The notes under the pieces were generated by a model. The model was not told where the DNA came from and did not search any database. It saw nothing but the letters and a program-made list of their open reading frames with translations. The position numbers and the translations under genes are program-made. From Candidatus Adlerbacteria bacterium (GTDB lineage Bacteria; Patescibacteriota; Minisyncoccia; Phycocordibacterales; SBAW01), in the NCBI GenBank assembly GCA_027451965.1, contig DAIDHJ010000001.1, forward strand, positions 87,639-151,638: 64,000 nucleotides of DNA, given 5' to 3'. Of this stretch, positions 2 through 48,446 are shown in pieces. How positions within the stretch are numbered: the stretch's first letter is position 1; the number at the start of each line of letters is the position of its first letter.

Positions 2-286
2 AGTTTCATTGAAGTATGCAAATGTGCTGGATGGGGGGATGTCGGCTATATCAATCGCTGGACCATGGAGATTACGAATAATTCCATGCACTATTACATT
101 CCTTTGGTTGTCGGGAGGCGCATCGCGCAAATCATCTTTTTTGAAACCGGACCTATTTTGGCATCAGATTATGCAAAAGCCGGAAAATACCAATCAACTG
201 GTTCAATTACTTCCCTTAAAAAAAGTTGGAAACCGGAAATGATGCTCCCTCGTCTCTACCTTGATCGAGATATACGTAAAAGATAG
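2..286 (+). CDS. dcd: dCTP deaminase / dUTPase-superfamily protein, C-terminal fragment (5' end lies outside the window)
   Basis: In frame with ORF 65..286 and open back to position 2: ...CAGWGDVGYINRWTMEITNNSMHYYIPLVVGRRIAQIIFFETGPI. The GWGD...TLEIxN...G.RIAQ.IF pattern is typical of the dCTP deaminase C-terminus. A thymidylate-synthase-like gene follows. Confidence 0.5.
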   Translation, partial: SFIEVCKCAGWGDVGYINRWTMEITNNSMHYYIPLVVGRRIAQIIFFETGPILASDYAKAGKYQSTGSITSLKKSWKPEMMLPRLYLDRDIRKR

Positions 287-321
287 TATAGCGTCAGACT
301 TACTGTGAAAGGGATATAACT

Positions 322-1698
322 ATGGAATTTTCCAACCTGGCACATGTACAAAAACCATTGCCGCATGGCGGGAGGGTACTTGTACTTGATACCGGGGCTC
401 TTATCGGAGCAGAGGCAGAGGCGATGCTCCAGGCGCTTCACTCTCGTTCAATCGGCGGGGTCAGGTCCCATCTAGAAAAACTAGAGAAAAAAGGACCTGC
501 CAACTTCATGGAAACCTATTACGTTGGGTATGGAGATAAGTCGATCGGCGATTGCGGAAGCACGACAATCTTCATCGAAGGGGTGTCCATGCTGGTTGCG
601 AAAGCGATTCAGGATTCACAGCTCTACAACGGACAAGAATCCTCGACTCGCTACATCGACTTTTCCAACCAACCATTTCTTAATCCCGCAGCATCTGCAG
701 CAGGAGAACAGATCCTGGAAGAGCTTCGAGCATTCCATCTGGAAGGTCTCGAAACAATGAAGGCGATCTTGGCAGAACGCCATCCCCGACAGGAACAGGA
801 GGAAGAGAAAGTGTGGCAAAAAGCCATCAATGCGCGAGCATTCGATGTCATGCGCAGTTTTCTTCCTGCCGGAGCAGTGACCAACCTTGCGTGGCACACC
901 GAACTGCGCCATGCAGCCGACCATCTCATGCGATTACGGCACCATCCGCTTGCGGAAGTGCGCACGGTAGCGGAAGCCATACAAACGGCGCTCGATGAAA
1001 AATATCCCAGTTCTTTCAAACAGAAGCGATACGAACAAACAGAATCATATGTCGAAGACTGTATGCGCTCGTACTACTTCAATTTCACCGCAGAAGAAGC
1101 GCGGCGCGTTTCTGCTGAAGAGATTGCGGTAGAACACGACGGTCTCGATCATGATCTGCTGCAGACCTACCGCACTGTATTTTCAGCACGGCCGTTCAAA
1201 GCGGAGCCGCCGAAGTATGCAGCGGAGTGCGGGAGCATGCGGTTTGCATTCTTCTTGGATTTCGGATCATTCCGCGATCTGCAGCGGCATCGGGCAGTGG
1301 TGCAGCGCATGCCGCTGCTCACTGACGCTTGGGGATTTGAGGCATGGTATCTCGCACAAATGCCGGAGGCACTGCAAGAAAAAGCCATCTCGGTGCTGGA
1401 AAAGCATCGCATGGATATACAAAAATTGCAGCTGTCTGCAGAGCTTCAGCAGTACTACCTGCCCATGGGATACCGCGTAGCATGCCGCATCACTGGAGAC
1501 TTGCCTGCCCTGCTCTGGCTTGTTGAACTGCGTTCGGGAACCGCCGTACATCCAACCTTGCGCACCGTCGCTCAAGCAATAGGAGTGAAAGTGCAGGACG
1601 CGTGCAAGCCGATCGACATTGCAGTGCACATCAATACAGAAGAAGATCGTTTCAACATCAAACGAGGGCTGCACGATATCGTGGAGAAAACCCCGTAA
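322..1698 (+). CDS. ThyX-like (flavin-dependent thymidylate synthase family) protein, unusually long (458 aa)
   Basis: First half: ...IFIEGVSMLVAKAIQDS...QESSTRY resembles the ThyX IEGxSR...RHR...SQRY block but RHR is replaced. Second half: FGSFRDLQRHR has the RHR motif, and ITGDLPALLWLVELRSGTAVHPTLRTVAQAI resembles the ThyX C-terminal NxRxLxHFxxLR...AQxEIR block. Sits after dcd. Followed by a rho-independent terminator. Confidence 0.45.
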   Translation: MEFSNLAHVQKPLPHGGRVLVLDTGALIGAEAEAMLQALHSRSIGGVRSHLEKLEKKGPANFMETYYVGYGDKSIGDCGSTTIFIEGVSMLVAKAIQDSQLYNGQESSTRYIDFSNQPFLNPAASAAGEQILEELRAFHLEGLETMKAILAERHPRQEQEEEKVWQKAINARAFDVMRSFLPAGAVTNLAWHTELRHAADHLMRLRHHPLAEVRTVAEAIQTALDEKYPSSFKQKRYEQTESYVEDCMRSYYFNFTAEEARRVSAEEIAVEHDGLDHDLLQTYRTVFSARPFKAEPPKYAAECGSMRFAFFLDFGSFRDLQRHRAVVQRMPLLTDAWGFEAWYLAQMPEALQEKAISVLEKHRMDIQKLQLSAELQQYYLPMGYRVACRITGDLPALLWLVELRSGTAVHPTLRTVAQAIGVKVQDACKPIDIAVHINTEEDRFNIKRGLHDIVEKTP

Positions 1699-1700
1699 TC

Positions 1701-1730
1701 AAAAACCGCTCCTTTCGGAGCGGTTTTTTT
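1701..1730. terminator. bidirectional rho-independent terminator between convergent thyX-like and rplK
   Basis: aaaaaccgctcc-tttc-ggagcggttttttt: perfect GC-rich hairpin flanked by A-run and T-run. Confidence 0.7.
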
Positions 1731-2151
1731 ATTTAATGTCTACTCCCATGGAGCGCGCCGATCCTGCAACAATTTTCATCGCGGTTTCAATGTCTGCTGC
1801 ATTGAGATCACGCATTTTCTTCTCTGCGATTTCTCGCAATTTTTCCTTGGAAAGGGTTCCGATCTTTGAAAGATTTGGTTTTCCAGAACCTTTTTCTTTA
1901 CCGAGAGCTTTCAAAATAAGAGAGGAAGCGGGAGGAGTTTTGAGTACGAAATCGTAGGTGCGATCCTGATACACACTGATCTGTGCGGGAATCAAATCCC
2001 CTTTCATGTCCTGTGTCGCCTCATTGAAGCGCTTCACGAATTCTCCGATGTTGATTCCTGCAGGACCCAACACCTGACCCATGGCAGGAGTAAGTACCGC
2101 AGCGCCGCCGGGAGCAATAATTTTTATGGTTTTCGTTACTGTTTTTGCCAT
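1729..2151 (-). CDS. rplK: 50S ribosomal protein L11
   Basis: MAKTVTKTIKI...PAGINIGEFVKRFN...LKTPPAS is the canonical L11 sequence; 140 aa. Confidence 0.9.
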   Translation of the reverse strand: MAKTVTKTIKIIAPGGAAVLTPAMGQVLGPAGINIGEFVKRFNEATQDMKGDLIPAQISVYQDRTYDFVLKTPPASSLILKALGKEKGSGKPNLSKIGTLSKEKLREIAEKKMRDLNAADIETAMKIVAGSARSMGVDIK

Positions 2152-3892: not shown

Positions 3893-4258
3893 ATGGAGAT
3901 GAATCGCATGATCAAGATTAAGCGCGCATATGAGAAAGCTTCAAGTAAGGATGGCTATCGTATTTTGGTAGATCGTTTATGGCCTCGCGGCGTTTCGAAG
4001 AAACTACTCCATTTATATCGCTGGGAGAAAGACCTTGCTCCATCGACCATGCTGCGAAAATGGTTTAATCATGATCCAAAGAAATGGGCAGGATTCAAAC
4101 GAAAATATCTCACCGAGTTACGAAAAAAGGCGCCGTTGATAAAAGAACTGCGAGCTTTGAGCAGAGGGCATACAGTCACTTTGGTGTACGGAGCAAAAGA
4201 TGATGAACACAATGAAGCTGTAATATTGGCTCAAGTAGCAGGAACTAATAAAAAATAA
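3893..4258 (+). CDS. DUF488 family protein (YeaO-like)
   Basis: IKIKRAYEKASSKDGYRILVDRLWPRGVSKK matches the DUF488 signature (RxYE..DG.RxLVDRLWPRG). The start may be the internal MIKIK at 3908. Confidence 0.6.
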   Translation: MEMNRMIKIKRAYEKASSKDGYRILVDRLWPRGVSKKLLHLYRWEKDLAPSTMLRKWFNHDPKKWAGFKRKYLTELRKKAPLIKELRALSRGHTVTLVYGAKDDEHNEAVILAQVAGTNKK

Positions 4259-4325
4259 TCTGGACCGAAAGGGCGAAACTAATCGAACCATCGATTGTCT
4301 CGGGGCTCTATCGGATTCGGATATC

Positions 4326-5753
4326 CTATGCTGAATCAATCTGTTTTTTTACAAACTCACGATTTAGCCAGAAACAACGTTTTGTCGCTTCGGCTCCATT
4401 AGGCAGAGGCAGGGTGTCGGATGCATCTCGTCCATGTGGTCGCACGTGTACGACATCGCTTCCCGATTTCTTAGGTAAAGAGTCGACATCGCTTTTCTTA
4501 ATCGCTATCACGGCTTCATGCCATACGCGTTGTACTTCTCCCTCTAAAATGTCATGGGGTATTGTCCAGAAAAAGACCTTGTATAAACGTCTGGAGTCTC
4601 CAACCTTGCAGTCATCATCACATTTATAAACAACGAAAAGAAATTGCTTCTGCAACTGATTCTTGAATGTACTTTCGAGTTTTTCGTCGTCTGCTCCCGC
4701 GCCCCAATCTTCTTGGATGAGTTCGAGGAATTTGAACGCTGGGAACGACATATCTTCCTTCGGCATGCCATCTCCGCGTAATTGGACCGTTTTCATTGCT
4801 ATCTCGGCCTTTTCAAACTCTTCGATTTTTTTGCCCTTTACCCCTATCATGCGACGCGCGAGCATCGCATAGAAATCCTTAGATTCAGGATTTAGACCAT
4901 CTCCAATCTTTTGCTGAATCTCTTTTACTGATTTTCCGAGAAACGGAGAGAAACGGTCGAGAATCTCCTGTTCGAAGGTCTTTCGACGTAAGGCCGATGA
5001 ATCCTTTACAGCCGCTTCGTACTCCCCAGCCGCGATTGTTGGTTCCAACATTTGTCGGAGCAAGACCGTCATATATCCGGCTTTGAAAGAGAAAGCGCGC
5101 GGCTTGGCTGCTGGCCCGCCGCTAGCTTGCGTCCGGGTCACAGAAGAATCAGCGGCTTTGGTGCATGCCGCTAGATACTGTGTGTCCCCCTCGGAGAGTT
5201 CGTGAGCTTTGCCTGCACGAATCTTCTCGACGATAGTCCGCCAATCGTTTTCAATTATGTTTCGGTCCCGCTCGGGCAACTCTTTGAAATCGAGCAATTG
5301 CGCAACAAGGACCGGATGGTCGACCATGGCTCTCTCATCTTTATGCTCATAAGAAACTAGCATGATTCTAGCGTTCTTCCGCAAGAACGAGCTGGCATCG
5401 AAATCGGCTGCTTCAGCTTCTTTTGAATAGTTGATGATGTTTAAGACTAATCGTTCCTTTGCCGAATAATCTCCGTTCCTGAGATGTTTTAGAGGAGTCG
5501 ATTTGAGTTCGACTCGGGCTTCCGGAAAATCCGGAAGAGACTCGTTCGGAGGAGTGATTCCGTAGTAGTACCTTTCCAAAATAGTCCCGAAGGAGCCGCG
5601 AGACCGACCACCTATGCGCATCTCTAGCAGCGCGTCAGGAATAGGCAGGATGCCCGGCGTCGTTCGCAAGGTCTTATGGAGCAGCCTCTTGCCATAACGC
5701 TCTATATCTGTCGGACTAGATTGATCGTATTGAGCCTGCATGGTAGGATCCAT
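4326..5753 (-). CDS. type II restriction endonuclease, Sau3AI/MutH family (predicted GATC-specific)
   Basis: GSFGTILERYYYGITPPNESLPDFPEARVELKSTPLK matches the MutH/Sau3AI catalytic block (GxxGxxLE...PDF...ELK). The ~475-aa size fits the two-domain Sau3AI family. It is divergent from an adjacent C5-MTase plus vsr. Start chosen at MDPTMQ (5753); the ORF is open to 5894. Confidence 0.55.
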   Translation of the reverse strand: MDPTMQAQYDQSSPTDIERYGKRLLHKTLRTTPGILPIPDALLEMRIGGRSRGSFGTILERYYYGITPPNESLPDFPEARVELKSTPLKHLRNGDYSAKERLVLNIINYSKEAEAADFDASSFLRKNARIMLVSYEHKDERAMVDHPVLVAQLLDFKELPERDRNIIENDWRTIVEKIRAGKAHELSEGDTQYLAACTKAADSSVTRTQASGGPAAKPRAFSFKAGYMTVLLRQMLEPTIAAGEYEAAVKDSSALRRKTFEQEILDRFSPFLGKSVKEIQQKIGDGLNPESKDFYAMLARRMIGVKGKKIEEFEKAEIAMKTVQLRGDGMPKEDMSFPAFKFLELIQEDWGAGADDEKLESTFKNQLQKQFLFVVYKCDDDCKVGDSRRLYKVFFWTIPHDILEGEVQRVWHEAVIAIKKSDVDSLPKKSGSDVVHVRPHGRDASDTLPLPNGAEATKRCFWLNREFVKKQIDSA

Positions 5754-5768
5754 ATAATCAAAGAGTAC

Positions 5769-7043
5769 ATGAAAAAAGCAATGGGTGATAGCAAAAAAAA
5801 GATAAGAGTAATCGAACTTTTTGCAGGCGTCGGCGGATTCAGAGTCGGCCTCGAAAGGGCATCGAAGCGCTTCGAGACTGTCTGGTTTAACCAATGGGAA
5901 CCTGGAAAATCAGCAGCTTCGCAGCATGCATGGAAAATTTATTGCACGGCCTTCGGTGAGGATATTGAAAGTGCTCGAAATAAACATACAAATACAGATA
6001 TCCATCAGGTTGAGATTGATGCAATTCCCAATCACGATCTCCTCGTCGGAGGATTCCCATGTCAGGACTACTCGGTAGCACGCGTGCTGAGCCAAGCGGC
6101 CGGGCTCATCGGCAAAAAAGGGGTCTTGTGGTGGGACATCTATCGCATCCTAAAAGATAAGAAAGCTCGTGCACCTTCGTATCTCATTCTTGAGAACGTC
6201 GACAGGCTTCTTAAATCTCCCGTGTCACAGCGAGGACGCGACTTCGCAGTCATGCTCGGATCACTGGCGGAACGTGGTTATGCAGTCGAATGGCGGGTAA
6301 TTAATGCTGCAGATTATGGAATGCCGCAAAGGCGCAGGCGCGTTTATATTCTTGGATACAAAAAAGGCACGCCGCAGTTCGAATCCGTCAAACGAAACCC
6401 GGAACGATGGCTTATGCGCGACGGTGTAATGCCCAAAGCCTTTCCTGTTGAAGCCATAGCTGAAGAAAAGATTCGTTCAATCATCATCGGACCCGCTGAA
6501 GAAGCATCTAAAAAGTTCAATAAAGGCGGTAGGCAAACGCCATTTGAAAATGCTGGAGTTATGGTGGGTGGCAAAGCTTTCACAGTCAAGACAATCCCCA
6601 ATACAGAGAAGACTATGACTCTGGGAGATGTCCTCGCCAACGATTCAGAAGTGTCCACTGAGTTTTACATTCCGAAGCGTCAGCTTGCCCTGTGGAAACA
6701 ATTGAAGGACGGAAAACGAGAGATGAGACGAAGTAAGTCCGGCTTCGAATACGAATACGCCGAAGGACCTGTGGCATTCCCGGACGCACTTAATAAACCA
6801 TCTCGAACGATTGTTACCGGCGAGGGAGGTTCTACACCTTCACGATTCAAACACGTGGTCCAGACGCGTGATGGAAGACTCCGTCGGCTGATACCCAAAG
6901 AACTTGAGCGGCTGAATATGTTCCCCGAGAACCATACCGCGGGAGCATCGGATACGGCGAGAGCATTCTTTATGGGGAACGCTTTGGTAGTAGGTATAGT
7001 CACGCGACTCGGAAAGGAGTTGCTGAAAAGGATAGATGGCTGA
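5769..7043 (+). CDS. DNA (cytosine-5)-methyltransferase
   Basis: Motif I IRVIELFAGVGGF; motif IV GGFPCQDYS; motif VI ILENV; ~425 aa. Start at MKKAMG (5769) rather than the ORF-track 5676, which would overlap the R gene. Confidence 0.85.
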   Translation: MKKAMGDSKKKIRVIELFAGVGGFRVGLERASKRFETVWFNQWEPGKSAASQHAWKIYCTAFGEDIESARNKHTNTDIHQVEIDAIPNHDLLVGGFPCQDYSVARVLSQAAGLIGKKGVLWWDIYRILKDKKARAPSYLILENVDRLLKSPVSQRGRDFAVMLGSLAERGYAVEWRVINAADYGMPQRRRRVYILGYKKGTPQFESVKRNPERWLMRDGVMPKAFPVEAIAEEKIRSIIIGPAEEASKKFNKGGRQTPFENAGVMVGGKAFTVKTIPNTEKTMTLGDVLANDSEVSTEFYIPKRQLALWKQLKDGKREMRRSKSGFEYEYAEGPVAFPDALNKPSRTIVTGEGGSTPSRFKHVVQTRDGRLRRLIPKELERLNMFPENHTAGASDTARAFFMGNALVVGIVTRLGKELLKRIDG

Positions 7044-7449
7044 CATATTCACAAAAGAAAAACGGAGCGAGATAATGTCGCGAATCCGTCCGAAAGGAAC
7101 CAAACTGGAACTGCTTGTTTTTAGCCACCTTCGCAAAGAGAAAATACATTTTCAGAAGCACTACCGAAGCGCAGTGGGCAGTCCAGATATAGCTGTACCG
7201 AGCAAGAAGCTTGCCGTTTTTATCGATGGCGACTTCTGGCATGGATGGCGGTTCTCACAATGGGAGCAGAAGCTTCCGCAGGAGTACTGGCGTGGCAAGA
7301 TTAGGGCGAATATCGACAGAGACCGGAGGACATTTGCAAAGCTTCGTCGACACGGCTGGAAGGTTTTGCGTGTGTGGGAACATGACCTGTCTAAATCCAA
7401 GCGAACCCTTACGCTCACTAAAATCGCGAAGTTTCTAACTACTTCTTGA
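7036..7449 (+). CDS. vsr: very-short-patch-repair endonuclease Vsr
   Basis: EKRSEIMSRIRPKGTKLEL...PDIAV...KLAVFIDGDFWHGW...RD is the Vsr family signature (TxPE...PDIV...AIFVDGCFWH). It overlaps the MTase stop by 8 nt. Confidence 0.8.
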   Translation: MADIFTKEKRSEIMSRIRPKGTKLELLVFSHLRKEKIHFQKHYRSAVGSPDIAVPSKKLAVFIDGDFWHGWRFSQWEQKLPQEYWRGKIRANIDRDRRTFAKLRRHGWKVLRVWEHDLSKSKRTLTLTKIAKFLTTS

Positions 7450-7654
7450 CTACCAGAGAACTTGTTTCCACCCACCCCGCAACGTCATAACAGCTGCGTT
7501 GGATATGGTCTTCTTTTCGTCCTCTGTAAGTTCTTCCGAAACTTTGTTCGCCGAATTTGCCGAATCCTGGAGCGATTTCAGAATGCGAACTGCAAGCAAC
7601 ACCAGCGTCCGCGGAATTCACCGCAGGAGAACTGCTCCAATTAAACACTTTCTT

Positions 7655-7728
7655 GGGCGATCGCCGGGAATCGAACCCGGATCGGGAGGACCACAATCTC
7701 CAGTGTTGACCATTACACCACGATCGCC
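7655..7728 (-). tRNA. tRNA-His (anticodon GTG) with genomically encoded G-1; CCA not encoded
   Basis: The reverse complement GGCGATCGTGGTGTAATGGTCAACACTGGAGATTGTGGTCCTCCCGATCCGGGTTCGATTCCCGGCGATCGCCC folds as a cloverleaf: acceptor GCGATCG/CGATCGC, T-arm CCGGG-TTCGATT-CCCGG, anticodon loop TTGTGGT, extra 5' G. Confidence 0.8.
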
Positions 7729-8250: not shown

Positions 8251-8685
8251 TTATGCAGCAACTTCAGTTTCTTGTTGAGCGGCTGCATCTGGTACCTCTG
8301 TCACCGCCTGCTCATCTGTGTTCGCTGCTATGGTTTGTGATTTACGCATGGCACGCTTTACATCACGTGCAGCCTTGCGTCGAATGAAATACAGTTTTGC
8401 GCGGCGAGTATAGGCGCGGCGCAACAGTTCAATAGAATCTATAGAAGGAGAATAGAGTGGAAAAATTTTCTCCACCCCAACGCCGCTTGCTACCTTTCGA
8501 ACAGTAAATGTAGCTCCCGGTTCTGTGCCATGCTTTACCGCAAGCACCAACCCTTCAAATGCTTGGCGTCGTGCCTTTCCTTTTTCAATCACTTTTTGCC
8601 ACACACGAACCGTGTCCCCCGCTCGGATGCCAAGCTGGGCTCGTTCTTTCGTATTTATTGGTGTATGGACGACGGACGATTTCAC
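8251..8685 (-). CDS. rplS: 50S ribosomal protein L19
   Basis: GDTVRVWQKVIEKGKARRQAFEGLVLAVKHGTEPGATFTVRKVASGVGVEKIFPLYSPSIDSIELLRRAYTRRAKLYFIRR is the canonical L19 core. Confidence 0.85.
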   Translation of the reverse strand: MKSSVVHTPINTKERAQLGIRAGDTVRVWQKVIEKGKARRQAFEGLVLAVKHGTEPGATFTVRKVASGVGVEKIFPLYSPSIDSIELLRRAYTRRAKLYFIRRKAARDVKRAMRKSQTIAANTDEQAVTEVPDAAAQQETEVAA

Positions 8686-9425
8686 TTCGACAAGCTAACA
8701 CGATTCTCACCCTCATGCAACGCATTGGCCGCCTCTAAAAATTCCTTTGGGAGAGGCGCTTCAATAGAAATTGTTTTACCTGTCACCGGATGAGAGAAGC
8801 TGAGAGCATATGCATGCAAGGCCAAACGCGTAAATCCTAATAAGAAAGGCCGGCGCGGAGCATAGAGCATATCTCCAATGATTGGATGCTGAACAGCGGA
8901 GAAATGAACTCTGATTTGATGCGTTCGTCCCGTCTTGGGAAAGACTTCTACATAACTTGCTTGTGGGGAACGTTCGATCACTCGATATAGCGTGATCGCT
9001 TCACGCATGATTCCATGCGGCGTGCGTGCAGAACGAGGTGCAATGCCGTTGCGTCCGCTGCCAATCGGTTTATCAATAATTCCCCGCTCATCCTTAAGTG
9101 CACCGTGCACAAACGCTCGATATACCTTTCGAATCATCCTTTCTTTGAACTGTTCTTTCAGGTGCGCAAATGCCTCGGGAGTACGCGCGACTACCATAAC
9201 GCCAGATGTCTCTCTATCGAGACGATGCACAATTCCCGGACGTTCAATAACTGTGCCGTTGAGAAGTGTTTGAGGTTCTCCCACATGTGCAAGTTCTGGA
9301 TAGCGCTTGAGAAGCCAGTCCGTGAGAAGTGGGTATGCATGCTTTCCATCACCATGTACCGCCAATCCACTTGGTTTATTGAGTACAATCACCGCTTCGT
9401 CCTCGTACAGGACTGTTGGTTCCAT
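8682..9425 (-). CDS. RluA-family 23S rRNA/tRNA pseudouridine synthase
   Basis: VHRLDRETSGVMVVART (HRLD..TSG catalytic motif). The start is reassigned to MEPTVLYEDE (9425) because the longer ORF runs into tRNA-Val. Confidence 0.8.
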   Translation of the reverse strand: MEPTVLYEDEAVIVLNKPSGLAVHGDGKHAYPLLTDWLLKRYPELAHVGEPQTLLNGTVIERPGIVHRLDRETSGVMVVARTPEAFAHLKEQFKERMIRKVYRAFVHGALKDERGIIDKPIGSGRNGIAPRSARTPHGIMREAITLYRVIERSPQASYVEVFPKTGRTHQIRVHFSAVQHPIIGDMLYAPRRPFLLGFTRLALHAYALSFSHPVTGKTISIEAPLPKEFLEAANALHEGENRVSLSK

Positions 9426-9427
9426 GG

Positions 9428-9500
9428 TGCACGCTGAGGGACTCGAACCCCCGACCCACTCGGTGTAAACGAGTTGCTCTACCAACTGAGCTAAGCGTGC
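9428..9500 (-). tRNA. tRNA-Val (anticodon TAC)
   Basis: Reverse complement GCACGCTTAGCTCAGTTGGTAGAGCAACTCGTTTACACCGAGTGGGTCGGGGGTTCGAGTCCCTCAGCGTGCA. Anticodon loop TTTACAC. Confidence 0.85.
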
Positions 9501-9627
9501 GTCTGAGTCAGTGTAGCAAACTGGAGCACGAAACACGAGTTGGTCATATATTGACAGCTATTTAGTATGTATAGTACATAGGAAAAGGAATTCATTACCG
9601 TTTTCTGTAACTTAAGGAAGGAACCAA

Positions 9628-34450: not shown

Positions 34451-36595
34451 ATGCGGCCTAAAAACCGTCTGCTCCGTACAATAAAAAAACGAGGTGGTCC
34501 GTGGATCATATGGGTACTCGGCATCCTGTTCCTGCTCATGGGAGGGGTTCTCCTATGGGCCTCTACACTGCAAATTCCTGATCTTTCTTCGCTCGAAAAC
34601 CGCGTGGTGGAACAATCGGTCAATATCTATGACCGTACTGGAACCATTTTGCTTTACAACCTCAACAACAATGCTCAACGCATCGTAGTACCGCTCTCGG
34701 CTATATCTCCTAATATTCAGGAAGCGACTATTGCAATGGAAGATCCGACGTTTTACCAAAATATTGGTATTCAACCCAGTGCCATTGCACGAGCTGCACT
34801 TGCTGACCTATTTCACCTTGCCCCAGTGCAAGGAGGGTCAACTATCACCCAACAGGTGGTAAAAGAGACATTGCTTACCAACAACAAAAGCATCACTCGA
34901 AAACTCAAGGAATTAGTATTAGCACTGAAACTGACTCGCACACTACCTAAAGACAAAATTCTTGAAATTTATCTCAATCAAACACCGTACGGAGGAAATA
35001 TATATGGAGTAGAACAGGCATCGGAAACATTCTTCAATGAACACGCTAGTGATGTTGATTTGGCTCAAGCGGCGTACTTGGAAGCGGTGCTTGCTGCTCC
35101 CACCTATTACTCTCCTTACGGAAACCATAAAGCAGATTTGGACGCGCGTAAAAATATTGTGCTCCAAAAAATGTTTGAACATGGCTACATTACCCAAGCG
35201 CAACTCGCTCAAGCACAACAGGAAGTGGTTACTTTTCAACCACAACATGAAACTGGCATTACTGCCCCGCATTTTGTGTTTTATGTAGAGCAGTATCTGG
35301 AAAGTAAATATGGAGCCGCGGCACTGCAACAAGGAGGGTGGAAAGTGATTACCACGCTTGATGCGGATCTGCAGACGCAAGCAGAAGCAACAGTGAAAAA
35401 GTGGGCCTTGTCTAATGCACAGACATACAATGCATCCAATGCAGGACTTATTGCTATCGATCCGAATACTGGACAGATTCTTGCTATGGTTGGTTCACGC
35501 GACTATTTTGATACGTCAGTAGATGGTAACTACAATGTGACCCTTGCCCTGCGTCAGCCGGGATCTACTTTCAAACCGTTTGTATATGCTGAAGCATTTA
35601 TGAAAGGATATACCCCTGATACAGTGCTTTTTGACGTACCTACTCAATTCTCAACCACCTGTGCCGCAAACAACTTCAGTAATGATAACGGGTGTTATGC
35701 TCCAGTTAATTACGACGGGCAGTTTGATGGACCGATGACACTACGGGATGCACTCGCACAATCGCGCAATGTTCCTTCGGTAAAATTGTTCTATCTTGCC
35801 GGACTCAATGATTCACTTGAATTGGCAAAAAGTATGGGTATCTCCACGCTTGGCGACCCGAGTCAGTACGGCCTCACTTTGGTATTGGGCGGCGGTGATG
35901 TAACTCTTTTGGATATGACAAGTGCATATGGCACATTTGCAACGAATGGAACCCATTATGAACCGGTGTCGGTGTTAAAAATTGAAGATCAGAATGGAAA
36001 TGTTATAGAAGATAATACACAGCCGGTTGGTACGAAAGTACTTCCGAATAGTGCAGCGGAGGAAATTAACAGCATACTATCCGACTATAATGCTCGCGCT
36101 CCTCTAGGAGAAAATGATTTTCTGAGTTTTCCTGGACATGATGTTGCAGTGAAAACAGGTACCACTAACGATTTTCGTGATGCGTGGACCATAGGATACA
36201 CCCCGAATGTGGTTATTGGTGTATGGGCAGGAAATAATAACAATGCTCCTATGTCCAAAAAAGTATCTGGTTTTATCGTTGGTCCTATGTGGCACGAGAT
36301 TATGAACTATGAAATAAATCGTGTTCCTAATATACCCTTCACTAATAGTGATATTCCTCCCGATCCACAAAAACCGATTTTGCAAGGAAATTGGCAGATT
36401 CCTGGCAACGACGGAAATATCCATAACATTCTATATTGGGTGGATAGAAACAATCCAACCGGTCCTCCTCCTTCCAATCCTTACAATGATCCGGAATTTC
36501 AATTATGGGATCCTCCGGTAGTACAGTGGGCGCAACAGCATGGTTTCATGCCAGGATTTCAACAAAACAGCGCTACTACTTCACCGCTTCCTTAG
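34451..36595 (+). CDS. penicillin-binding protein 1A (bifunctional GT51 transglycosylase/transpeptidase)
   Basis: N-terminal TM. GT51 motifs IAMEDPTFYQNIG, GGSTITQQ, RKLKE. TPase motifs STFKP, SRN, KTGTT. Confidence 0.85.
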   Translation: MRPKNRLLRTIKKRGGPWIIWVLGILFLLMGGVLLWASTLQIPDLSSLENRVVEQSVNIYDRTGTILLYNLNNNAQRIVVPLSAISPNIQEATIAMEDPTFYQNIGIQPSAIARAALADLFHLAPVQGGSTITQQVVKETLLTNNKSITRKLKELVLALKLTRTLPKDKILEIYLNQTPYGGNIYGVEQASETFFNEHASDVDLAQAAYLEAVLAAPTYYSPYGNHKADLDARKNIVLQKMFEHGYITQAQLAQAQQEVVTFQPQHETGITAPHFVFYVEQYLESKYGAAALQQGGWKVITTLDADLQTQAEATVKKWALSNAQTYNASNAGLIAIDPNTGQILAMVGSRDYFDTSVDGNYNVTLALRQPGSTFKPFVYAEAFMKGYTPDTVLFDVPTQFSTTCAANNFSNDNGCYAPVNYDGQFDGPMTLRDALAQSRNVPSVKLFYLAGLNDSLELAKSMGISTLGDPSQYGLTLVLGGGDVTLLDMTSAYGTFATNGTHYEPVSVLKIEDQNGNVIEDNTQPVGTKVLPNSAAEEINSILSDYNARAPLGENDFLSFPGHDVAVKTGTTNDFRDAWTIGYTPNVVIGVWAGNNNNAPMSKKVSGFIVGPMWHEIMNYEINRVPNIPFTNSDIPPDPQKPILQGNWQIPGNDGNIHNILYWVDRNNPTGPPPSNPYNDPEFQLWDPPVVQWAQQHGFMPGFQQNSATTSPLP

Positions 36596-37689
36596 CGATT
36601 CATCGGCATTACTAAATAGAGAAACGATTCGTCGGAAGCATCTTTCATAACAATTGCTTTTCCGGTACCGTTTGCATGGATACGTACGCTTTCTCCAGCA
36701 ATAGACTGCAGGCTATCAGCGACATACCGTCCATTAAAAGACATGGAAATTGCTTCTCCGGCAATAGTTGCTCGTAGTGTGGAGATTTGTTCTCCTACAT
36801 CAGGATTATGGGAAGAGAGTACGAGTGTCTTTTTTGCCGGTTCTACTGCAAGAATGATATGAAAAAACTTATCACTAAATACGGAGAGTGATTTAAGTGC
36901 TTGTGATAGATCCTCTCGCAATACCACTACTTCCGTAGTGAATGATTTTGGAATAATTTGCTGGTAGTTAGGAAAAGATCCATCAATAAGCCTGCTGGTA
37001 AAATAGGTATTGTTTATGTGCGCGGAAATCTGATTTTCGTTGTAATACACATCCACATCTCCATTGTGCGTTTCTAATAGGCGAATAAATTCCATTGCAT
37101 TCCGTGCAGGAAACAGTAACCGAGGAACACTTCCTCTTGAGCGTAAAAGGATTGTTTTTTCCGCTAGGCGAAATGAATCAGTTGCCGCTACGGTGAGTTT
37201 TCCTGCTTCTGCAGAGAGCAACACGCTTTGTAATTCTGGTTTTATGGATGACGTGGAAGCACAATATCCAACGCTCCGTATCGCTTTTATAAGATCAATA
37301 CTTTTTACACTAAAACTGGTTGATGCGGCAACTCGAGGAAGGGTTGGAAAATCCTCCGGCGGGAGAGTTTTTATTGAAGCCACCATATGATCTGTTTCAA
37401 CTTGTATTGTGTGATCCTTAAGAAACACTGATACTTGTTTTCCTTTTAAAGTGGAAAGGAAACTTGAAAGAGTGTGTGCAGGAACCGCAGCTATACCTTC
37501 CTGCAGCACCTTTGCCGGCACTGTGATTTCAATTCCGCATTCAAGATTTGTCGCACGTAGTAATAATCGCCCTTGTTCGGCAATAAGAAGTATGGTGGCG
37601 AGTACTGGCAGATTTGGACGCTTATCAGTAAATCGAGTACTAGTTGCTACTGCTGTATTGAGTTGTTCCACAGTCGTTTCAAATTTCAT
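36592..37689 (-). CDS. dnaN: DNA polymerase III beta sliding clamp
   Basis: MKFETTVEQLNTAV...TILLIAEQGRLLLRATNLE... Three-domain beta-clamp pattern, 365 aa, directly downstream of dnaA. Confidence 0.85.
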   Translation of the reverse strand: MKFETTVEQLNTAVATSTRFTDKRPNLPVLATILLIAEQGRLLLRATNLECGIEITVPAKVLQEGIAAVPAHTLSSFLSTLKGKQVSVFLKDHTIQVETDHMVASIKTLPPEDFPTLPRVAASTSFSVKSIDLIKAIRSVGYCASTSSIKPELQSVLLSAEAGKLTVAATDSFRLAEKTILLRSRGSVPRLLFPARNAMEFIRLLETHNGDVDVYYNENQISAHINNTYFTSRLIDGSFPNYQQIIPKSFTTEVVVLREDLSQALKSLSVFSDKFFHIILAVEPAKKTLVLSSHNPDVGEQISTLRATIAGEAISMSFNGRYVADSLQSIAGESVRIHANGTGKAIVMKDASDESFLYLVMPMNR

Positions 37690-37887
37690 AGGTGTATATA
37701 TTCTTGTATATAAAATCTATTACTAATACTAGTAGTGTGGATTGGTGGATATATCTTCTTTCTTGTTTGTTTTCTTATACATATTATTCAATATAGTATT
37801 GGGAATAATTTGTGCGATATGTAGATAAGATGAGTTTTGTATGAATGATGAAATAGTTATACTCATGTTCTCTACTCTCTGTACACA
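37690..37887. promoter_or_regulatory. oriC-type region: AT-rich dnaA-dnaN intergenic spacer with DnaA boxes
   Basis: AT-rich (tatatattcttgtatataaaatctattactaatactagtag). DnaA-box matches on the reverse strand: tgtggattg (37736-44), ggtggatat (37744-52) and tgtagataa (37820-28, reverse complement TTATCTACA). Confidence 0.55.
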
Positions 37888-39228
37888 TCATTTCAACATA
37901 AGACGAATCTGATTCACCTCTTGGTTGAGTACGCTGTCGGAAAGTAGTTCTGATTTTATTTTTTCACATGAGTGAATGACTGTAGTATGATCTCTTCCTC
38001 CTAATTTTTCCCCTATAGCAGGAAATGAGATATGAAAATCTTCTCGAAGGAGATACATAATTACCTGCCGTGGACGCACTACTTCTTTCCGTCGTGTTTT
38101 CTCATAAATACTATTTTCTTCAGTATTGTAAAAATTGGCGACAATTTTTACCACTTCCGGGACAGAAATAGCTTTTTTTGTGGCTCCCGCAGCGCTTCTC
38201 AGAATATTTTTGGTGTCTGCCAGTGTAAGTGGTCCTTCACGCATTTCAAACTGAATAAGTAAGAGATTTAATGCCCCTTCAAGTTCCCGAACATTTCCTT
38301 CAATAGTGCTCGCCAAGTAATCGAGAATATCATCTGATAGTACTACCCCGTGCGCAGCCGCTTTTGCCCGCACAATAGCCAAACGTGATTGATGGTCGGG
38401 AGGGGTGATGGAAACAATCATGCCGGCACTAAGACGCGATTTTATACGGTCTTCCAATTGTTGAATCACATTTGGATGTTGATCGGAAGTGAATATAAGC
38501 TGCTTGTTTCCATCATGGAGGTAGTTGAACAAGTGAAAAAATTCTTCCTTGATTTTATCTCTACCGGCAAGGAACTGTACGTCGTCCATGATAAGCAAAT
38601 CATACTGTCGATAGTGTTCTTTAAAACTCTGCACTTTTCCACTCTGGAGCGCAGATACATAATCCATAGAGAACTTCTCCGAAGTGACATAAAAGATTTT
38701 CCGATCAGGAGTGTGTACGCGAAAATGGTTTCCGATTGCTTGAATAAGGTGTGTTTTTCCGAGTCCGGTCGGTCCGTACACAAGTAGTGGATTGTATGCA
38801 ATACCTGGTTTACGTATCACTGCTTGTGCAGCGGCGTGTGCTAATTCGTTGAATGGTCCTACTACGAACGTAGAGAGTATAAAACGAGGGTTTAAATTGG
38901 TTTTAGTATGTACTGATTCAAGTGGAAGTTCTGCTGGTGCTGAAGTGGTGGTAATAACTTCTTCCACAGCTTTTTTTGGATTGCGGGAGATGACATATTC
39001 AACCGAACGAATATTCTCCGAATGGCTGCGCAATGAACGCAAAATATCCTTATGAAATTTCCGCAACAGCCAATCTCTGGCAAATTGGCTCGGCACGCCG
39101 AGATACACCGTATTGTCTTCTATGCGAACGATGTGAGTGTCTCGGAACCACGTATTGAAATTGGGAGGAGAAATACTGAGTTCAAGCTCAACCAGTGTGT
39201 TTTCCCAAAGTTCTTTCGTGGTGGTCAT
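37888..39228 (-). CDS. dnaA: chromosomal replication initiator protein DnaA
   Basis: Walker A GPTGLGKTHL, Walker B LLIMDDVQF, sensor and box motifs, C-terminal DNA-binding domain ...LGGRDHTTVIHSCEKI. Confidence 0.9.
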   Translation of the reverse strand: MTTTKELWENTLVELELSISPPNFNTWFRDTHIVRIEDNTVYLGVPSQFARDWLLRKFHKDILRSLRSHSENIRSVEYVISRNPKKAVEEVITTTSAPAELPLESVHTKTNLNPRFILSTFVVGPFNELAHAAAQAVIRKPGIAYNPLLVYGPTGLGKTHLIQAIGNHFRVHTPDRKIFYVTSEKFSMDYVSALQSGKVQSFKEHYRQYDLLIMDDVQFLAGRDKIKEEFFHLFNYLHDGNKQLIFTSDQHPNVIQQLEDRIKSRLSAGMIVSITPPDHQSRLAIVRAKAAAHGVVLSDDILDYLASTIEGNVRELEGALNLLLIQFEMREGPLTLADTKNILRSAAGATKKAISVPEVVKIVANFYNTEENSIYEKTRRKEVVRPRQVIMYLLREDFHISFPAIGEKLGGRDHTTVIHSCEKIKSELLSDSVLNQEVNQIRLMLK

Positions 39229-39329
39229 AAGGTCTCACTAGGATAGGCGAGTGCACAGTGGGTGTCAAAAGAGCTGAAAATGTGGAGAACGTGTGGAGAA
39301 GTTGTTGAGAAGTCATTCCTGAGGTATAT

Positions 39330-39358
39330 TGAGCACTGTTCGTCCGCTTGATACAATT
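39330..39358 (+). promoter_or_regulatory. candidate sigma-70 promoter for rpmH-rnpA-yidC-jag (TTGAGC-17-TACAAT)
   Basis: ttgagc (39330-35), 17-nt spacer, tacaat (39353-58), ~9 nt before the rpmH ATG, so a near-leaderless mRNA. Two TGTGGAGAA DnaA-box-like repeats lie at 39281-39300 just upstream. Confidence 0.4.
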
Positions 39359-39366
39359 ATCTCTTC

Positions 39367-39513
39367 ATGTCACAAACCTATCAGCCAAAAAAACGCAAAC
39401 GAGCAAAAACGCACGGTTTTCTTGTGCGCACCAAGACTCCAGGAGGCCGTAATGTGCTTCTTCGCCGCCGTCGTAAAGGCCGAGTGCGTCTCGCAGTGAA
39501 GCGCAGTCGCTAA
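39367..39513 (+). CDS. rpmH: 50S ribosomal protein L34 (48 aa; below the ORF-track cutoff)
   Basis: [48 protein letters not shown] is near-universal L34. Confidence 0.9.
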
Positions 39514-39520
39514 AAGCGGT

Positions 39521-39844
39521 ATGCTCCCCTCTTCCCGCCGTTTGCGCGCCAGCGAAGTGCGGGTCATTATTGCTACAGGGCGCAGTATTCGAGGAGAATA
39601 CCTGTCGGCGAAATATCGCCTCGCGTCTGGACCGTTCCGCAGTGCCATTGTGGTATCAAAAAAGCTTGCGAAAACAGCAGTGATGCGAAATAGGTTGCGC
39701 CGGTGGACATACAACGCCCTTACACAGCAACCATTTCCCAAAGGTATAGAGGTGGTTATTTTTATACAAAAGAAACCAACCATCGCACCAGTATCTGCAC
39801 TTGTCCGCGATCTCACACATCTATGTTCCAAACTATCCTCGTAG
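39521..39844 (+). CDS. rnpA: ribonuclease P protein component
   Basis: Basic 107-aa protein with RNRLRRW (RNR motif), immediately after rpmH. Confidence 0.75.
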   Translation: MLPSSRRLRASEVRVIIATGRSIRGEYLSAKYRLASGPFRSAIVVSKKLAKTAVMRNRLRRWTYNALTQQPFPKGIEVVIFIQKKPTIAPVSALVRDLTHLCSKLSS

Positions 39845-40539
39845 CACCCCTCTATAACAGTTTTATTTTCCTTGTGGACCTTACCCATGGAAACGTAGGG
39901 TGGGCAATCATCCTGCTTACGCTATGCATACGCGTGCTGTTTTATGGGGCTTTTACTGCATCTATAAAAACACAAATGGGGATGCAAGAAGTCCAAGGAG
40001 AGCTTGCTGACATCAATGAAACCTACAAAGATAATTCTGAAGAACGTGCAAAACGCACGATGGAGCTGTTTAAAGAGAAAAAAATACGACCATTTGCCGG
40101 TTTGTTAGCACTGATTGTACAAATTCCAGTATTTCTAGCACTTTACTTCGCACTGTTCCGGGAAGGGTTGCCGCACATTGCGACACAACTACTCTATCCA
40201 TTTGTGCATATCCCCACCACCATCACCACGGTATTTATAGGAATTCCTTTGCTTGTGCCGCATAACCTCATGCTTGCGGGCATAGTCGCCATTACGCAAT
40301 ACATTGCCATCCATTTTTCCTTGGCGCGTACTGCTTCTGTATCCCACCATCTTTCCAAAGAGCAGGAAATGGCACAGAGCATGCAGCGGGTAACCATGTT
40401 GTACACCATGCCGCTCATTCTCGGGTTTTTGAGCTATTCATTTCCTGCAGCGGTAGGCCTTTATTTTGCAACAGGAAATATTGTTTCTATCGTGCAAGAA
40501 TTGATCATTCGCCGACAGTTGGTGAAGAAATCGGCATAA
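39823..40539 (+). CDS. yidC: membrane protein insertase YidC (short, Gram-positive/CPR type)
   Basis: ...NVGWAIILLTLCIRVLFYGAFTASIKTQMGMQEVQGELADINETYKDN...AKRTMELFKEKKIRPFAGLLALIVQIPVFLALY is the YidC core. Start chosen at MFQTIL. Confidence 0.8.
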   Translation: MFQTILVAPLYNSFIFLVDLTHGNVGWAIILLTLCIRVLFYGAFTASIKTQMGMQEVQGELADINETYKDNSEERAKRTMELFKEKKIRPFAGLLALIVQIPVFLALYFALFREGLPHIATQLLYPFVHIPTTITTVFIGIPLLVPHNLMLAGIVAITQYIAIHFSLARTASVSHHLSKEQEMAQSMQRVTMLYTMPLILGFLSYSFPAAVGLYFATGNIVSIVQELIIRRQLVKKSA

Positions 40540-40558: not shown

Positions 40559-41038
40559 TTGCGGTATGGTGGCTACATGGACGACTCCTTGGTACAACTT
40601 ATTACCGAATTACTTGAGAAACTTGATGTACAAGTAGAACACATCGCTCTTGCTCCAGGAACACGAAAGATAATCGCAATCACTTCTCCTGAATCAAAAC
40701 GGCTCATCGGTCCGCATGGAGAACATTTACGTTCTCTTGCTGCACTTGCACGGCGGCTAGCAGAAACTAAATTTGGTCCGGAAATAAATTTTAGTATCGA
40801 TGTAAATGGCTACTATGAGCGGCAGATGGAACAAGTGCGCAGCAATGCTCGCATGCTCGCTCAGCGCGCTCGATTGTTTAAGTACGATATTGAAATGAGC
40901 CCCATGTCCCCGTATGAACGGTTGGTCATTCACGAACTGTTTGCTGAAGATCCGGAAATCGAAACGCGCTCGGAGGGAACGGGGAAATTCCGTCATGTAG
41001 TGCTCCATTATCGCGGCAGTCAGCAGACTACTGTGTAA
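40559..41038 (+). CDS. jag: Jag/KhpB-like RNA-binding protein (KH + R3H domains)
   Basis: C-terminal R3H: YERLVIHELFAEDPEIETRSEGTGKFRHVVL. Position after yidC. Confidence 0.7.
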   Translation: MRYGGYMDDSLVQLITELLEKLDVQVEHIALAPGTRKIIAITSPESKRLIGPHGEHLRSLAALARRLAETKFGPEINFSIDVNGYYERQMEQVRSNARMLAQRARLFKYDIEMSPMSPYERLVIHELFAEDPEIETRSEGTGKFRHVVLHYRGSQQTTV

Positions 41039-42248
41039 GGCGGACCCCCCAAAGGCTCCTATCTCCTCGGGAGATGTACATGAGATAGCGATCATCAGGA
41101 GAAATAGTTAATTGAGTGATACTTGTCTGTGAGCCCCCGTCTTGTCCTGGTACGGCGATCGCACTGCTCGTATTCCCATTAGAAAAATCTATCCCTTCAA
41201 TATAATCAGGTATATTTACAATACCTTGATGCCACGCGTCCAAATAACTAGCATCTACGTTTTGGGTTGGCATAGCACAATATAATCGGTAAGTGACCAG
41301 AGCATCCCATACACATTTTTCAGGGAAAACATCAAATACAGATACATCTCCTCCGCTATGCAGTAGGTGTACGTAACTCAAATTTACCCCATTGGAGCGA
41401 GTTTGGTATAGAATTTCACTTAAATCTTTATTTGCCAGCGCAGTAAGCCCATCCCCATACAGCAGTGGAACAATAGCACCACTTTTTACGCCTACTTCAA
41501 ATACTATTCCTGGAGTATCTGCTGCTGATTTTGTTTGAAGGATGATCATTTGTGGTGTTGGCCAGGAAATCAGTAATTGAGTGAAGGGTATGGAAAAAAG
41601 TTCTCGAGGGTTATGACCATCAACAGCGGCAACATATCCATTTACACCTCCCGATTGATTTTTTAGTAAGTAAGAAATGCTTCCTCCATCAGGAGAAACA
41701 GCTAATCCAAGTATATTATCAGGAAGAAACTGCACCTCTTTTGGGGATGATGGAGTAGTGGAGGTTGAAAGAGTGAACCCTAAGTAAATAGTTTTTATTG
41801 TATTGGTAGTGTCTACATACTGGAGCAATACCGCATTGCCTCCTTGGGCCCATACTGCCTTTTGTGCACCGGGAATAGTTACATCGGAAATAGTTTCTGG
41901 TGCAACACCCGACATATCAAGCGGTACATCAGATACATGCCCAGTATCCTGCATGATAAAACGAGCTATGGTAGTAGTTGGATTGTTTTGTTGAATAAAT
42001 ACTGCACTAGTGACTGGTCCTGGGGATATATTAAAAATTTTTTCGTTTGAATTACTACTTTCTGTAGTTTGACTAGTTAAAGTATTCCCATTTCCAGAAG
42101 AAAAAGTAGTATTTCCTGCACTCGGAAATCCGAACGAGCTAGTAGAAACTGGAAACGGAGCACTGGATCTGAAGAATAGAAACCACATCCCTGCACCCAA
42201 TAAAATGATGATTGCTCCAATACTCAAAAATATAATACGACGTGACAT
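41028..42248 (-). CDS. secreted/membrane-anchored hypothetical protein, beta-propeller-like (last gene of the T4SS-like operon)
   Basis: N-terminal TM IIFLSIGAIIILLGAGMWFLFF. Repetitive S/T/G-rich beta-strand segments with DGxxxxY-type repeats. Confidence 0.45.
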   Translation of the reverse strand: MSRRIIFLSIGAIIILLGAGMWFLFFRSSAPFPVSTSSFGFPSAGNTTFSSGNGNTLTSQTTESSNSNEKIFNISPGPVTSAVFIQQNNPTTTIARFIMQDTGHVSDVPLDMSGVAPETISDVTIPGAQKAVWAQGGNAVLLQYVDTTNTIKTIYLGFTLSTSTTPSSPKEVQFLPDNILGLAVSPDGGSISYLLKNQSGGVNGYVAAVDGHNPRELFSIPFTQLLISWPTPQMIILQTKSAADTPGIVFEVGVKSGAIVPLLYGDGLTALANKDLSEILYQTRSNGVNLSYVHLLHSGGDVSVFDVFPEKCVWDALVTYRLYCAMPTQNVDASYLDAWHQGIVNIPDYIEGIDFSNGNTSSAIAVPGQDGGSQTSITQLTISPDDRYLMYISRGDRSLWGVRLTQ

Positions 42249-42251
42249 AGA

Positions 42252-43157: not shown

Positions 43158-43160
43158 ATC

Positions 43161-44177: not shown

Positions 44178-44185
44178 ACTACCTA

Positions 44186-46743: not shown

Positions 46744-46744
46744 A

Positions 46745-47395: not shown

Positions 47396-47397
47396 AT

Positions 47398-47838: not shown

Positions 47839-47860
47839 AGTATTAAGTATATCGCAGATT

Positions 47861-48427: not shown

Positions 48428-48446
48428 ATAAATATATAGTACTATA

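Follow-up and report, generated by a model that had tools for sequence, protein, structure and literature searches.

A 64,000-nucleotide stretch of the Candidatus Adlerbacteria bacterium assembly GCA_027451965.1 (contig DAIDHJ010000001.1, positions 87,639 to 151,638 of the forward strand) begins with the end of a dCTP deaminase gene (dcd), followed on the same strand by a gene for a double-length member of the ThyX family (flavin-dependent thymidylate synthases). The whole stretch is called the window here, and coordinates are counted from its first letter. Residues of the double-length protein are numbered from its own start codon, those of reference enzymes carry the prefix Tm (Thermotoga maritima) or Mtb (Mycobacterium tuberculosis), and the two ThyX-like parts are called the N-half and the C-half. 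The features of the locus are as follows.

2 to 286, plus strand: 3′ end of dcd (last 94 codons and the stop codon); the beginning of the gene lies upstream, outside the window.
307 to 314, plus strand: Shine-Dalgarno-like GAAAGGGA, 7 nucleotides 5′ of the ATG at 322, read from the sequence.
322 to 1698, plus strand: double-length thyX (458 amino acids [aa] and a stop codon), with an ATG start, no internal stop, and two PF02511 stretches.
352 to 1038, plus strand: N-terminal ThyX-fold half, aa 11 to 239 (hhalign to Tm ThyX residues 3 to 212, E = 6.8e-6; Pfam 51.2 bits).
613 to 621, plus strand: D98-S99-Q100, degenerate RHR position of the N-half, aligned without gaps to Tm R78-H79-R80.
637 to 654, plus strand: E106-S-S108-T-R110-Y111, the E-x-S-x-R-Y loop kept in the N-half (Tm E86/S88/R90/Y91).
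1039 to 1149, plus strand: variable interdomain linker and start of the C-half, aa 240 to 276, delimited by column conservation.
1150 to 1650, plus strand: C-terminal ThyX-fold half, aa 277 to 443 (hhalign to Tm ThyX residues 41 to 213, E = 1.2e-4; Pfam 27.6 bits).
1273 to 1293, plus strand: R318-D319-L-Q-R322-H323-R324, the RHR kept in the C-half with the preceding R/D (Tm R74, Q75, and R78 to R80); the RHR codons are CGG CAT CGG at 1285 to 1293.
1309 to 1323, plus strand: M330-P331-L-L333-T334, degenerate E-x-S-x-R-Y position of the C-half (hhalign alignment).
1531 to 1551, plus strand: R404...H410, C-half counterparts of Tm R174 and H178, 100% conserved.
1645 to 1680, plus strand: C-terminal tail D-R-F-x-x-x-R448-G449-x-x-D-I453, aa 442 to 453, recognized by conservation and modeled with low confidence.
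1701 to 1728, no strand assigned: GC-rich hairpin between an A-run and a T-run (12-bp stem, 6 GC pairs, T-tail).
1729 to 2151, minus strand: rplK, convergent with thyX.

Translated, positions 2 to 283 give 94 aa that match the C-terminus of a dCTP deaminase (PF22769, DCD; E = 1.6e-7; 32 bits, cutoff 27). The match to TIGR02274 (E = 3.4e-6) fell below the cutoff of that model because only a fragment of the gene lies in the window. The piece was the same at 95/95 positions (94 residues and the stop) as residues 131 to 224 of Dcd on contig L006, which is 99.5% identical to the window across a 2-kb overlap and carries the full 224-aa protein. The ATG of thyX at 322 is the same start as the aligned Met of its homologues, and the hairpin at 1701 to 1728, which separates thyX from rplK, is likely an intrinsic terminator that works in both directions.

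A sequence-only reading of this DNA had described a double-length ThyX-like protein encoded by a single gene. Both parts of that description held: one intact 458-aa open reading frame (ORF) occupies 322 to 1698 on the plus strand, both of its halves are PF02511 positive, and the more than 3,000 database relatives are themselves single ORFs of ∼430 to 500 aa. The reading frame is therefore not a frameshift artifact. It is vanishingly improbable that an assembly or frameshift error has joined two adjacent thyX genes. A few half-length entries (P0192, 248 aa; P0265, 280 aa) might be cited in its favor, but these may be contig-end fragments and nothing else points that way, whereas the ORF is continuous, thousands of independent assemblies show this architecture, and a 100% identical protein is on record from a 548-kb NCBI contig. 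A two-gene or frameshift origin was rejected, given that the single ORF is conserved throughout the family.

The complete 458-aa protein scored 73.9 bits against PF02511 (Thy1; gathering score 24.8 bits), and each half passed the gathering score on its own (aa 1 to 250, 51.2 bits, E = 1.8e-13; aa 251 to 458, 27.6 bits, E = 3.1e-6), such that the ThyX match lies far beyond chance. After sequence searches of the Protein Data Bank (PDB), the relationship to ThyX was judged by structure prediction with Foldseek and by profile-profile alignment. The AlphaFold2 (AF2) model of the full protein reached a predicted local distance difference test score (pLDDT) of 89.2 and a predicted template modeling score (pTM) of 0.89, with the last 20 residues at pLDDT 53 to 66, and the PDB structures that Foldseek ranked highest for it were all ThyX (Thermotoga, Mycobacterium, Thermus, and chlorella virus). 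An AF2 model of aa 246 to 458 alone (pLDDT 90.5) returned 150 PDB matches at E ≤ 1e-3; the 50 listed were all ThyX (best E = 3e-6), with template modeling (TM) scores of 0.5 to 0.6 across 170 to 200 aligned columns. Because the C-half model retrieves ThyX structures by itself, the second half is a whole ThyX fold and not a fragment. Identity between the double-ThyX models and the PDB ThyX structures was ∼15% in these Foldseek comparisons. For the N-half, the ThyX α/β fold is supported by its full-length hhalign alignment to Tm ThyX. Compared separately with PF02511, as the sequence-only reading had suggested, both halves were ThyX, and an unrelated N-terminal domain is thus not the case (Pfam E = 1.8e-13; hhalign E = 6.8e-6).

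Residues were mapped by hhalign of half-profiles (250 family members) against a profile of canonical ThyX relatives. The reference was the T. maritima ThyX sequence, confirmed as 100% identical to the 1KQ4/1O26 chain. In the N-half, the signature region aligned to Tm ThyX without gaps. Here, Tm R78/H79/R80 are replaced by D98/S99/Q100 and Q75 by A95, E86/S88/R90/Y91 are kept as E106/S108/R110/Y111, and further equivalents are D175 (Tm E144), R178 (R147), R196 (R165), S74 (T55), and D72 (H53). The C-half keeps Tm R74 as R318, the RHR as R322/H323/R324, R174 as R404, and H178 as H410, with D319 at the position of Tm Q75 and Mtb E92. Its losses are at Tm E86/S88/R90/Y91 (M330/P331/L333/T334), R147 (Q377), and R165 (P395). 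The motif strings quoted in the sequence-only reading were all located, namely, IEGVS (aa 85 to 89), AIQDS (95 to 99), and ESSTRY (106 to 111) in the first half and FRDLQRHR (317 to 324) and ITGDLPALLWLVELRSG...TLRTVAQAI (390 to 420) in the second. Neither domain carries the contiguous RHRxxxxxxxS(xR) signature (N-half, D98-S-Q...S108-T-R110; C-half, R322-H-R324...P331-L-L333), which is present solely as a composite of both halves. When the C-half (in the role of subunit A) is joined with the N-half (in roles B and C), however, the complete set of flavin adenine dinucleotide (FAD) and dUMP contacts for one active site is found (Tm R78, H79, R80, R174, and H178; T55 and R165; and E86, S88, R90, Y91, and R147), at 89 to 100% conservation.

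One position of the N-half stands apart in this protein. D72 (window positions 535 to 537) is an Asp; His occupies this position in 83% of the family and in canonical ThyX (Tm H53), and Asp is common to 17 to 25% of relatives. Tm H53 is the folate/flavin-stacking histidine, and a Tm H53D mutant is in the PDB (4KAR/4KAS).

The complementary pattern extends across the family. Conservation was measured in 377 full-length relatives that are 35 to 99% identical to the window protein, and a 250-sequence subset agreed. In the C-half, R318, D319, R322, R324, R404, and H410 were all 100% conserved, and H323 was conserved in 90%, with Gln in the remainder. In the N-half, S74, S108, and R110 were 100% conserved, followed by E106 (99%), R178 (98%), Y111 (97%), and R196 (92%). 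Among the 377 relatives, none had both of the RHR arginines in the N-half (0/377), where the first position was Asp in 91% and the other two were variable, and not one had S..R at the corresponding positions of the C-half (0/377). There, the S88/R90/Y91 positions were Pro (97%), Leu (82%), and Thr (75%), the R147 position was Gln in 98%, and the R165 position was Pro in 76%. The R174 equivalent of the N-half was relaxed to 58% Arg. The two motif claims of the sequence-only reading, an RHR replaced in a first half that keeps the IEGxS...SxRY block and an intact RHR in a second half that has no SxRY, are therefore borne out in this protein, and the complementary loss holds across the family.

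Positions conserved at ≥95% numbered 32 in the N-half and 17 in the C-half, and mean column conservation was 0.27 in the linker (aa 240 to 276) versus 0.64 in the N-half and 0.53 in the C-half. This pattern indicates that both halves are under purifying selection while the linker is free to vary. As judged from the alignments, the split is asymmetric: the N-half reads as a nearly complete ThyX that lacks mainly the RHR and Q75 and has its own C-terminal LP...LR...HP block, and the C-half also lacks R147 and R165. In another account, one half is enzymatic and the other is a catalytically irrelevant scaffold or regulatory pseudodomain, with either the N-halves active alone or the C-half a mere dimerization module. 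The N-half is indeed the more conserved of the two (32 versus 17 positions) and the more complete (Pfam 51 versus 28 bits). However, it never carries the RHR, which is needed for holding FAD, and the C-half equivalents of the RHR, R174, and H178 are ∼100% conserved down to 35% identity, which is unexpected for a scaffold. We regard this account as quite improbable.

In canonical ThyX, three monomers meet at the active site, as engineered or mixed heterotetramers reportedly showed (Leduc et al. 2004 PNAS, as cited in PMC9931769 and PMC5954106), and each site is built from three subunits in the structures described for M. tuberculosis and H. pylori ThyX (PMC6514825). Subunit A contributes the RHR, which contacts the phosphates, ribityl, and isoalloxazine of FAD, and Arg199 (Tm R174), which contacts dUMP; subunit B contributes Ser71 and Arg190 (Tm T55 and R165), which contact the FAD phosphates; and subunit C contributes Gln103, Ser105, Arg107, and Tyr108 (Tm E86, S88, R90, and Y91), which contact dUMP and the flavin (PMC6514825). 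In the chlorella virus ThyX, monomer A carries Gln75 and Arg182, and monomer B carries Ser88 and Gln89 (PMC3498832). Set against these published roles, the residues retained in the C-half correspond to exactly the A set, and those retained in the N-half to exactly the B and C sets. Since B and C are different subunits of the D2 tetramer, each C-half would need two N-halves.

We consider it probable, from comparative evidence, that the double-length protein is a functional flavin-dependent thymidylate synthase made of two fused, strongly diverged ThyX-fold domains and that two chains form a pseudotetramer with two live sites. The analysis shows that both halves have a ThyX fold, how their residues map onto it, that complementary conservation runs through the family, and that the gene is linked in genomes to dUMP supply, serine hydroxymethyltransferase (SHMT), and thymidylate kinase (Tmk); dimerization, the geometry of the subunits, half-of-sites stoichiometry, and activity as an enzyme are predictions. 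The predicted reaction is dUMP + CH2-H4folate (methylenetetrahydrofolate) + NAD(P)H → dTMP. The C-half would hold the flavin as the equivalent of the role A subunit, and the N-half would act both in role C, with the dUMP/lid loop, and in role B, with contacts to the FAD phosphates. In the simplest arrangement, two chains would assemble as N, C, N′, and C′, mimicking the ThyX homotetramer, with two complete sites per dimer that each consist of one C-half and both N-halves. The two other pockets, with the RHR, S/R/Y loop, R147, and R165 all missing together, would be permanently dead, and the expected stoichiometry would be one FAD per 458-aa chain.

Several observations weigh against this interpretation. 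The protein reached 38.2 bits against TIGR02170, the NCBIfam thyX equivalog model, and thus missed its cutoff of 87.9, and no ThyX was found among PDB chains searched with phmmer and with a 35-sequence family profile; the double-ThyX family is therefore far from characterized enzymes. D98 (91%), P331 (97%), and Q377 (98%) are strongly conserved although they would be residues of dead pockets, hinting that pockets of the second type are not simply decaying. H208 of the N-half (Tm H178) is still 92% conserved though H178 is an A-type residue. Finally, we assume that Tm R147 belongs to the subunit that donates S88 and R90, an assignment based on the conservation pattern and on the Tm structure.

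The conservation of these pocket residues raises the alternative that all four pockets of the pseudotetramer are competent, with noncanonical residues such as K94, D98, R42, R448, or Q328/R329 replacing the functions of the RHR and S-x-R. S41/R42 (100%), K94 (99%), R448 (≥97%), P331 (97%), and D98 (91%) are all well conserved, and Q328 and R329 are invariant among closer relatives. Across the wider family, however, Q328/R329 are only ∼60% conserved. Moreover, the second pocket type lacks the RHR, the S88/R90/Y91 loop, R147, and R165 at once, and the Pro, Leu, Thr, Gln, and Asp that replace them are unable to make the same contacts, making this alternative unlikely. A further suggestion, which we put forward as tentative and rather doubtful, is that the "dead" pockets form a new flavin-free site from D98, P331, Q377, and the R448-G449 tail, serving either as an allosteric site (e.g., a sensor of dTTP, dUMP, or dCTP) or for NAD(P)H/folate docking. 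If true, this would make the protein an asymmetric enzyme with specialized pocket types, which are not known to have been described for flavin-dependent thymidylate synthases. In the tail, R448, G449, and I453 are ≥97% conserved and have no counterpart in the canonical ThyX alignment; the tail (aa 442 to 453) may be an arm that reaches into a pocket.

Gene context provides a separate view of function. Close relatives, read partly at the locus of P0001 (a protein 99% identical to that of the window), carry SHMT and Tmk genes on one strand and dcd followed by double thyX on the other, with rplK-nusG-secE-SIMPL next; the window shows the downstream part of this arrangement. Within 4 kb of double thyX at 80 species-representative loci (single-seed tblastn, best 80 of at least 590 species genomes), we found SHMT at 29/80, Tmk at 23/80, and Dcd at 23/80, far above the chance expectation of ∼1% for any given gene (genomes of ∼1 Mb). 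Fusions were also found: P0043 (L005, 10001 to 12115; 704 aa) joins Dcd to ThyX with no stops through the junction, and in P0459, P0465, and P0474 (∼615 aa) a cytidine/dCMP deaminase (PF00383 and PF14437) is fused to double ThyX. These are two independent "Rosetta stone" fusions to nonhomologous deaminases with products that feed dUMP. Within the 64-kb window, as opposed to the whole genome, no thyA, folA, or second thyX was detected (Pfam on 40 large ORFs, plus tblastn). The sequence-only reading had taken the upstream dcd as support for a role in thymidylate synthesis; with the Dcd piece confirmed, the clustering of SHMT, Tmk, and Dcd and the deaminase fusions add to that support.

The same context bears on whether the protein, instead of being a housekeeping dTMP synthase, is a ThyX-derived paralogue with another substrate or chemistry, e.g., UMP, dCMP, or other nucleotide methylation or hydroxymethylation, as in the ThyX-like enzymes that take part in making nucleoside antibiotics. 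Its score under the TIGR02170 cutoff, its low identity to solved ThyX (∼15%), and its unusual conserved features (D319 for Q75, the C-terminal tail, and the "dead" pocket residues) would fit such a departure. Nevertheless, the composite site keeps every canonical dUMP and flavin contact residue, and clustering or fusion links the gene to enzymes that produce dUMP or dUTP (Dcd and dCMP deaminase), supply CH2-H4folate (SHMT), and consume dTMP (Tmk). It is also a near-universal, single-copy gene beside rplK-nusG-secE in >590 Patescibacteria genomes. We therefore hold a change of substrate to be improbable. Together, the deaminase fusions and the linkage to SHMT and Tmk argue strongly that the double ThyX performs dUMP-to-dTMP chemistry rather than chemistry on a new substrate.

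The family is large, with >3,000 matches in a 90%-clustered database and 1,918 representatives at E ≤ 1e-3 in a 50%-clustered database, 491 of them at E ≤ 1e-30, and the gene is present in at least 590 Patescibacteria species genomes. All informatively named matches were Patescibacteria (Paceibacterota and Kaiser-, Adler-, Uhr-, Moran-, Magasanik-, Falkow-, and Peregrinibacteria). The genome records of loci L014, L028, L047, L062, L063, L069, and L084, which bear the names Gammaproteobacteria, Burkholderiales, Bdellovibrionales, Woesearchaeota, or Pacearchaeota, carry this Patescibacteria-type gene at 51 to 56% identity and are probably mislabeled or contaminated metagenome-assembled genomes (MAGs). 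When named relatives from Chloroflexi, Chlamydia, and cyanobacteria were sought (in a representative library, by cluster look-ups, by a database search using the 22 most divergent members as a profile, and in species genomes), only Patescibacteria or evidently mislabeled MAGs were returned. The double ThyX is thus apparently the standard ThyX of Patescibacteria and not peculiar to the source genome. NCBI and JGI already annotate the family as FAD-dependent thymidylate synthase or ThyX.

The sequence-only reading had proposed a subfunctionalized tandem duplication. The complementary loss stood up, and across the whole family (n = 377). When the two halves were compared with each other by hhalign, the match had E = 0.08 and covered the C-terminal helix block, so the halves are not demonstrable as mutual closest relatives. 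From these sequences, the protein may have arisen either by tandem duplication or by fusion of two paralogues. Half-length relatives also exist, with P0192 (248 aa), P0193, and P0232 matching the N-half only and P0158 and P0265 (280 aa) the C-half only; they may be contig-end fragments or real split genes for separate halves. If they are genuine split genes, they would be relevant to how the fusion arose.

Earlier reports may touch on this family. Chlamydia ThyX (CT632) is also about twice the normal length and is reported to be enzymatically active, and Liu and Yang in 2004 (J Bacteriol 186:6316) are said to have reported "distinctive ThyX motifs" in Trichodesmium ThyX; the split may therefore already be partly described. 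Our searches of the searchable literature (duplicated ThyX, Chlamydia CT632, Trichodesmium ThyX, and ThyX in the candidate phyla radiation [CPR]) returned no account of a complementary motif split or of Patescibacteria ThyX, and only a 2009 remark. That remark notes a domain-duplicated ThyX in Chloroflexi "and a few other species" and calls it uncharacterized (Valas & Bourne 2009, PMC3224940).

Elsewhere in the window, three regions carry recognizable gene sets, as listed below.

3893 to 4258, plus strand: DUF488 (island 3893 to 7727).
4326 to 5894, minus strand: MutH/Sau3AI-like endonuclease (same island).
5676 to 7043, plus strand: C-5 cytosine methyltransferase (same island).
7036 to 7449, plus strand: Vsr mismatch endonuclease (same island).
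36592 to 37689, minus strand: dnaN.
37888 to 39228, minus strand: dnaA.
39703 to 40539, plus strand: yidC, after a gap of ∼470 bp following dnaA.
42252 to 43157, minus strand: type IV secretion system (T4SS)-pilin-like protein.
44911 to 46743, minus strand: TraG/VirB4-like ATPase.

The island at 3893 to 7727 breaks the synteny of relatives (SIMPL...DsbA-MscL-TerC...L19), and its end adjoins tRNA-His (7655 to 7727); it has the appearance of an inserted restriction-modification module that brings along very-short-patch repair of its own. The region from 36592 to 40539 is probably the chromosomal replication origin region. From 41028 to 53963 there is a run of minus-strand genes that includes ORFs of 406, 338, 790, 766, and 296 aa with no Pfam match, likely a Patescibacteria type IV secretion/conjugation-like cluster. 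The longest ORF of a RluA-type pseudouridine synthase (8682 to 9536) overlaps a tRNA-Val on the same strand (9425 to 9500), and the start codon in actual use therefore probably lies downstream of the listed one.

The double ThyX is a variant of a known enzyme and not a new system. ThyX is the sole thymidylate synthase in many bacteria and a drug target. Its three-subunit site is hard to dissect in a homotetramer, and the double ThyX would offer a natural single-chain "heterotetramer" in which the flavin-holding and substrate-lid functions lie on separately mutable domains, providing a system for the study of half-of-sites behavior, subunit roles, and flavin stoichiometry. For genome reconstruction, a family that is below the NCBIfam cutoff and invisible to ThyX sequence searches of the PDB could lead strict reconstructions based on hidden Markov models (HMMs) to call CPR genomes wrongly negative for dTMP synthesis. 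As an evolutionary case, it presents a clean, deeply conserved complementary degeneration after the duplication or fusion of an oligomeric enzyme.

Compared with canonical homotetrameric ThyX (also FDTS), e.g., T. maritima TM0449 (1O26/1KQ4), M. tuberculosis Rv2754c (2AF6/3GWC), PBCV-1 A674R (2CFA/4FZB), and the H. pylori enzyme (3N3Y), the double ThyX shares the fold in both halves, the Pfam family, the full FAD/dUMP contact set once the halves are combined, and the pathway context of SHMT, dUMP supply, and Tmk. Unlike these enzymes, it carries two fused domains in each chain, with a complete RHRxxxxxxxSxRY on neither of them, and is predicted to have two active sites per four-domain particle instead of four. 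It resembles the Chloroflexi ThyX of Valas & Bourne 2009 (PMC3224940) in its internal domain duplication; that paper contains no motif analysis, and the Chloroflexi proteins may or may not belong to the present family, for which the best 80 genome loci were all from Patescibacteria. As in mixed ThyX heterotetramers, different subunits would give different essential residues to one site, here in a natural, hard-wired form. Such heterotetramers were reportedly obtained by Leduc et al. (PNAS, 2004) by mixing point mutants of a single gene in the laboratory, whereas the division described here is fixed in one polypeptide and conserved over a large radiation. The monomeric herpesvirus-type dUTPases, which derive from a duplicated dUTPase fold, offer a parallel: in both cases, an oligomeric nucleotide enzyme with intersubunit sites appears to have been duplicated and fused, with complementary motif loss and fewer sites per particle. 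Their fold and chemistry are unrelated to those of ThyX, and the likeness is one of analogy, not of family membership.

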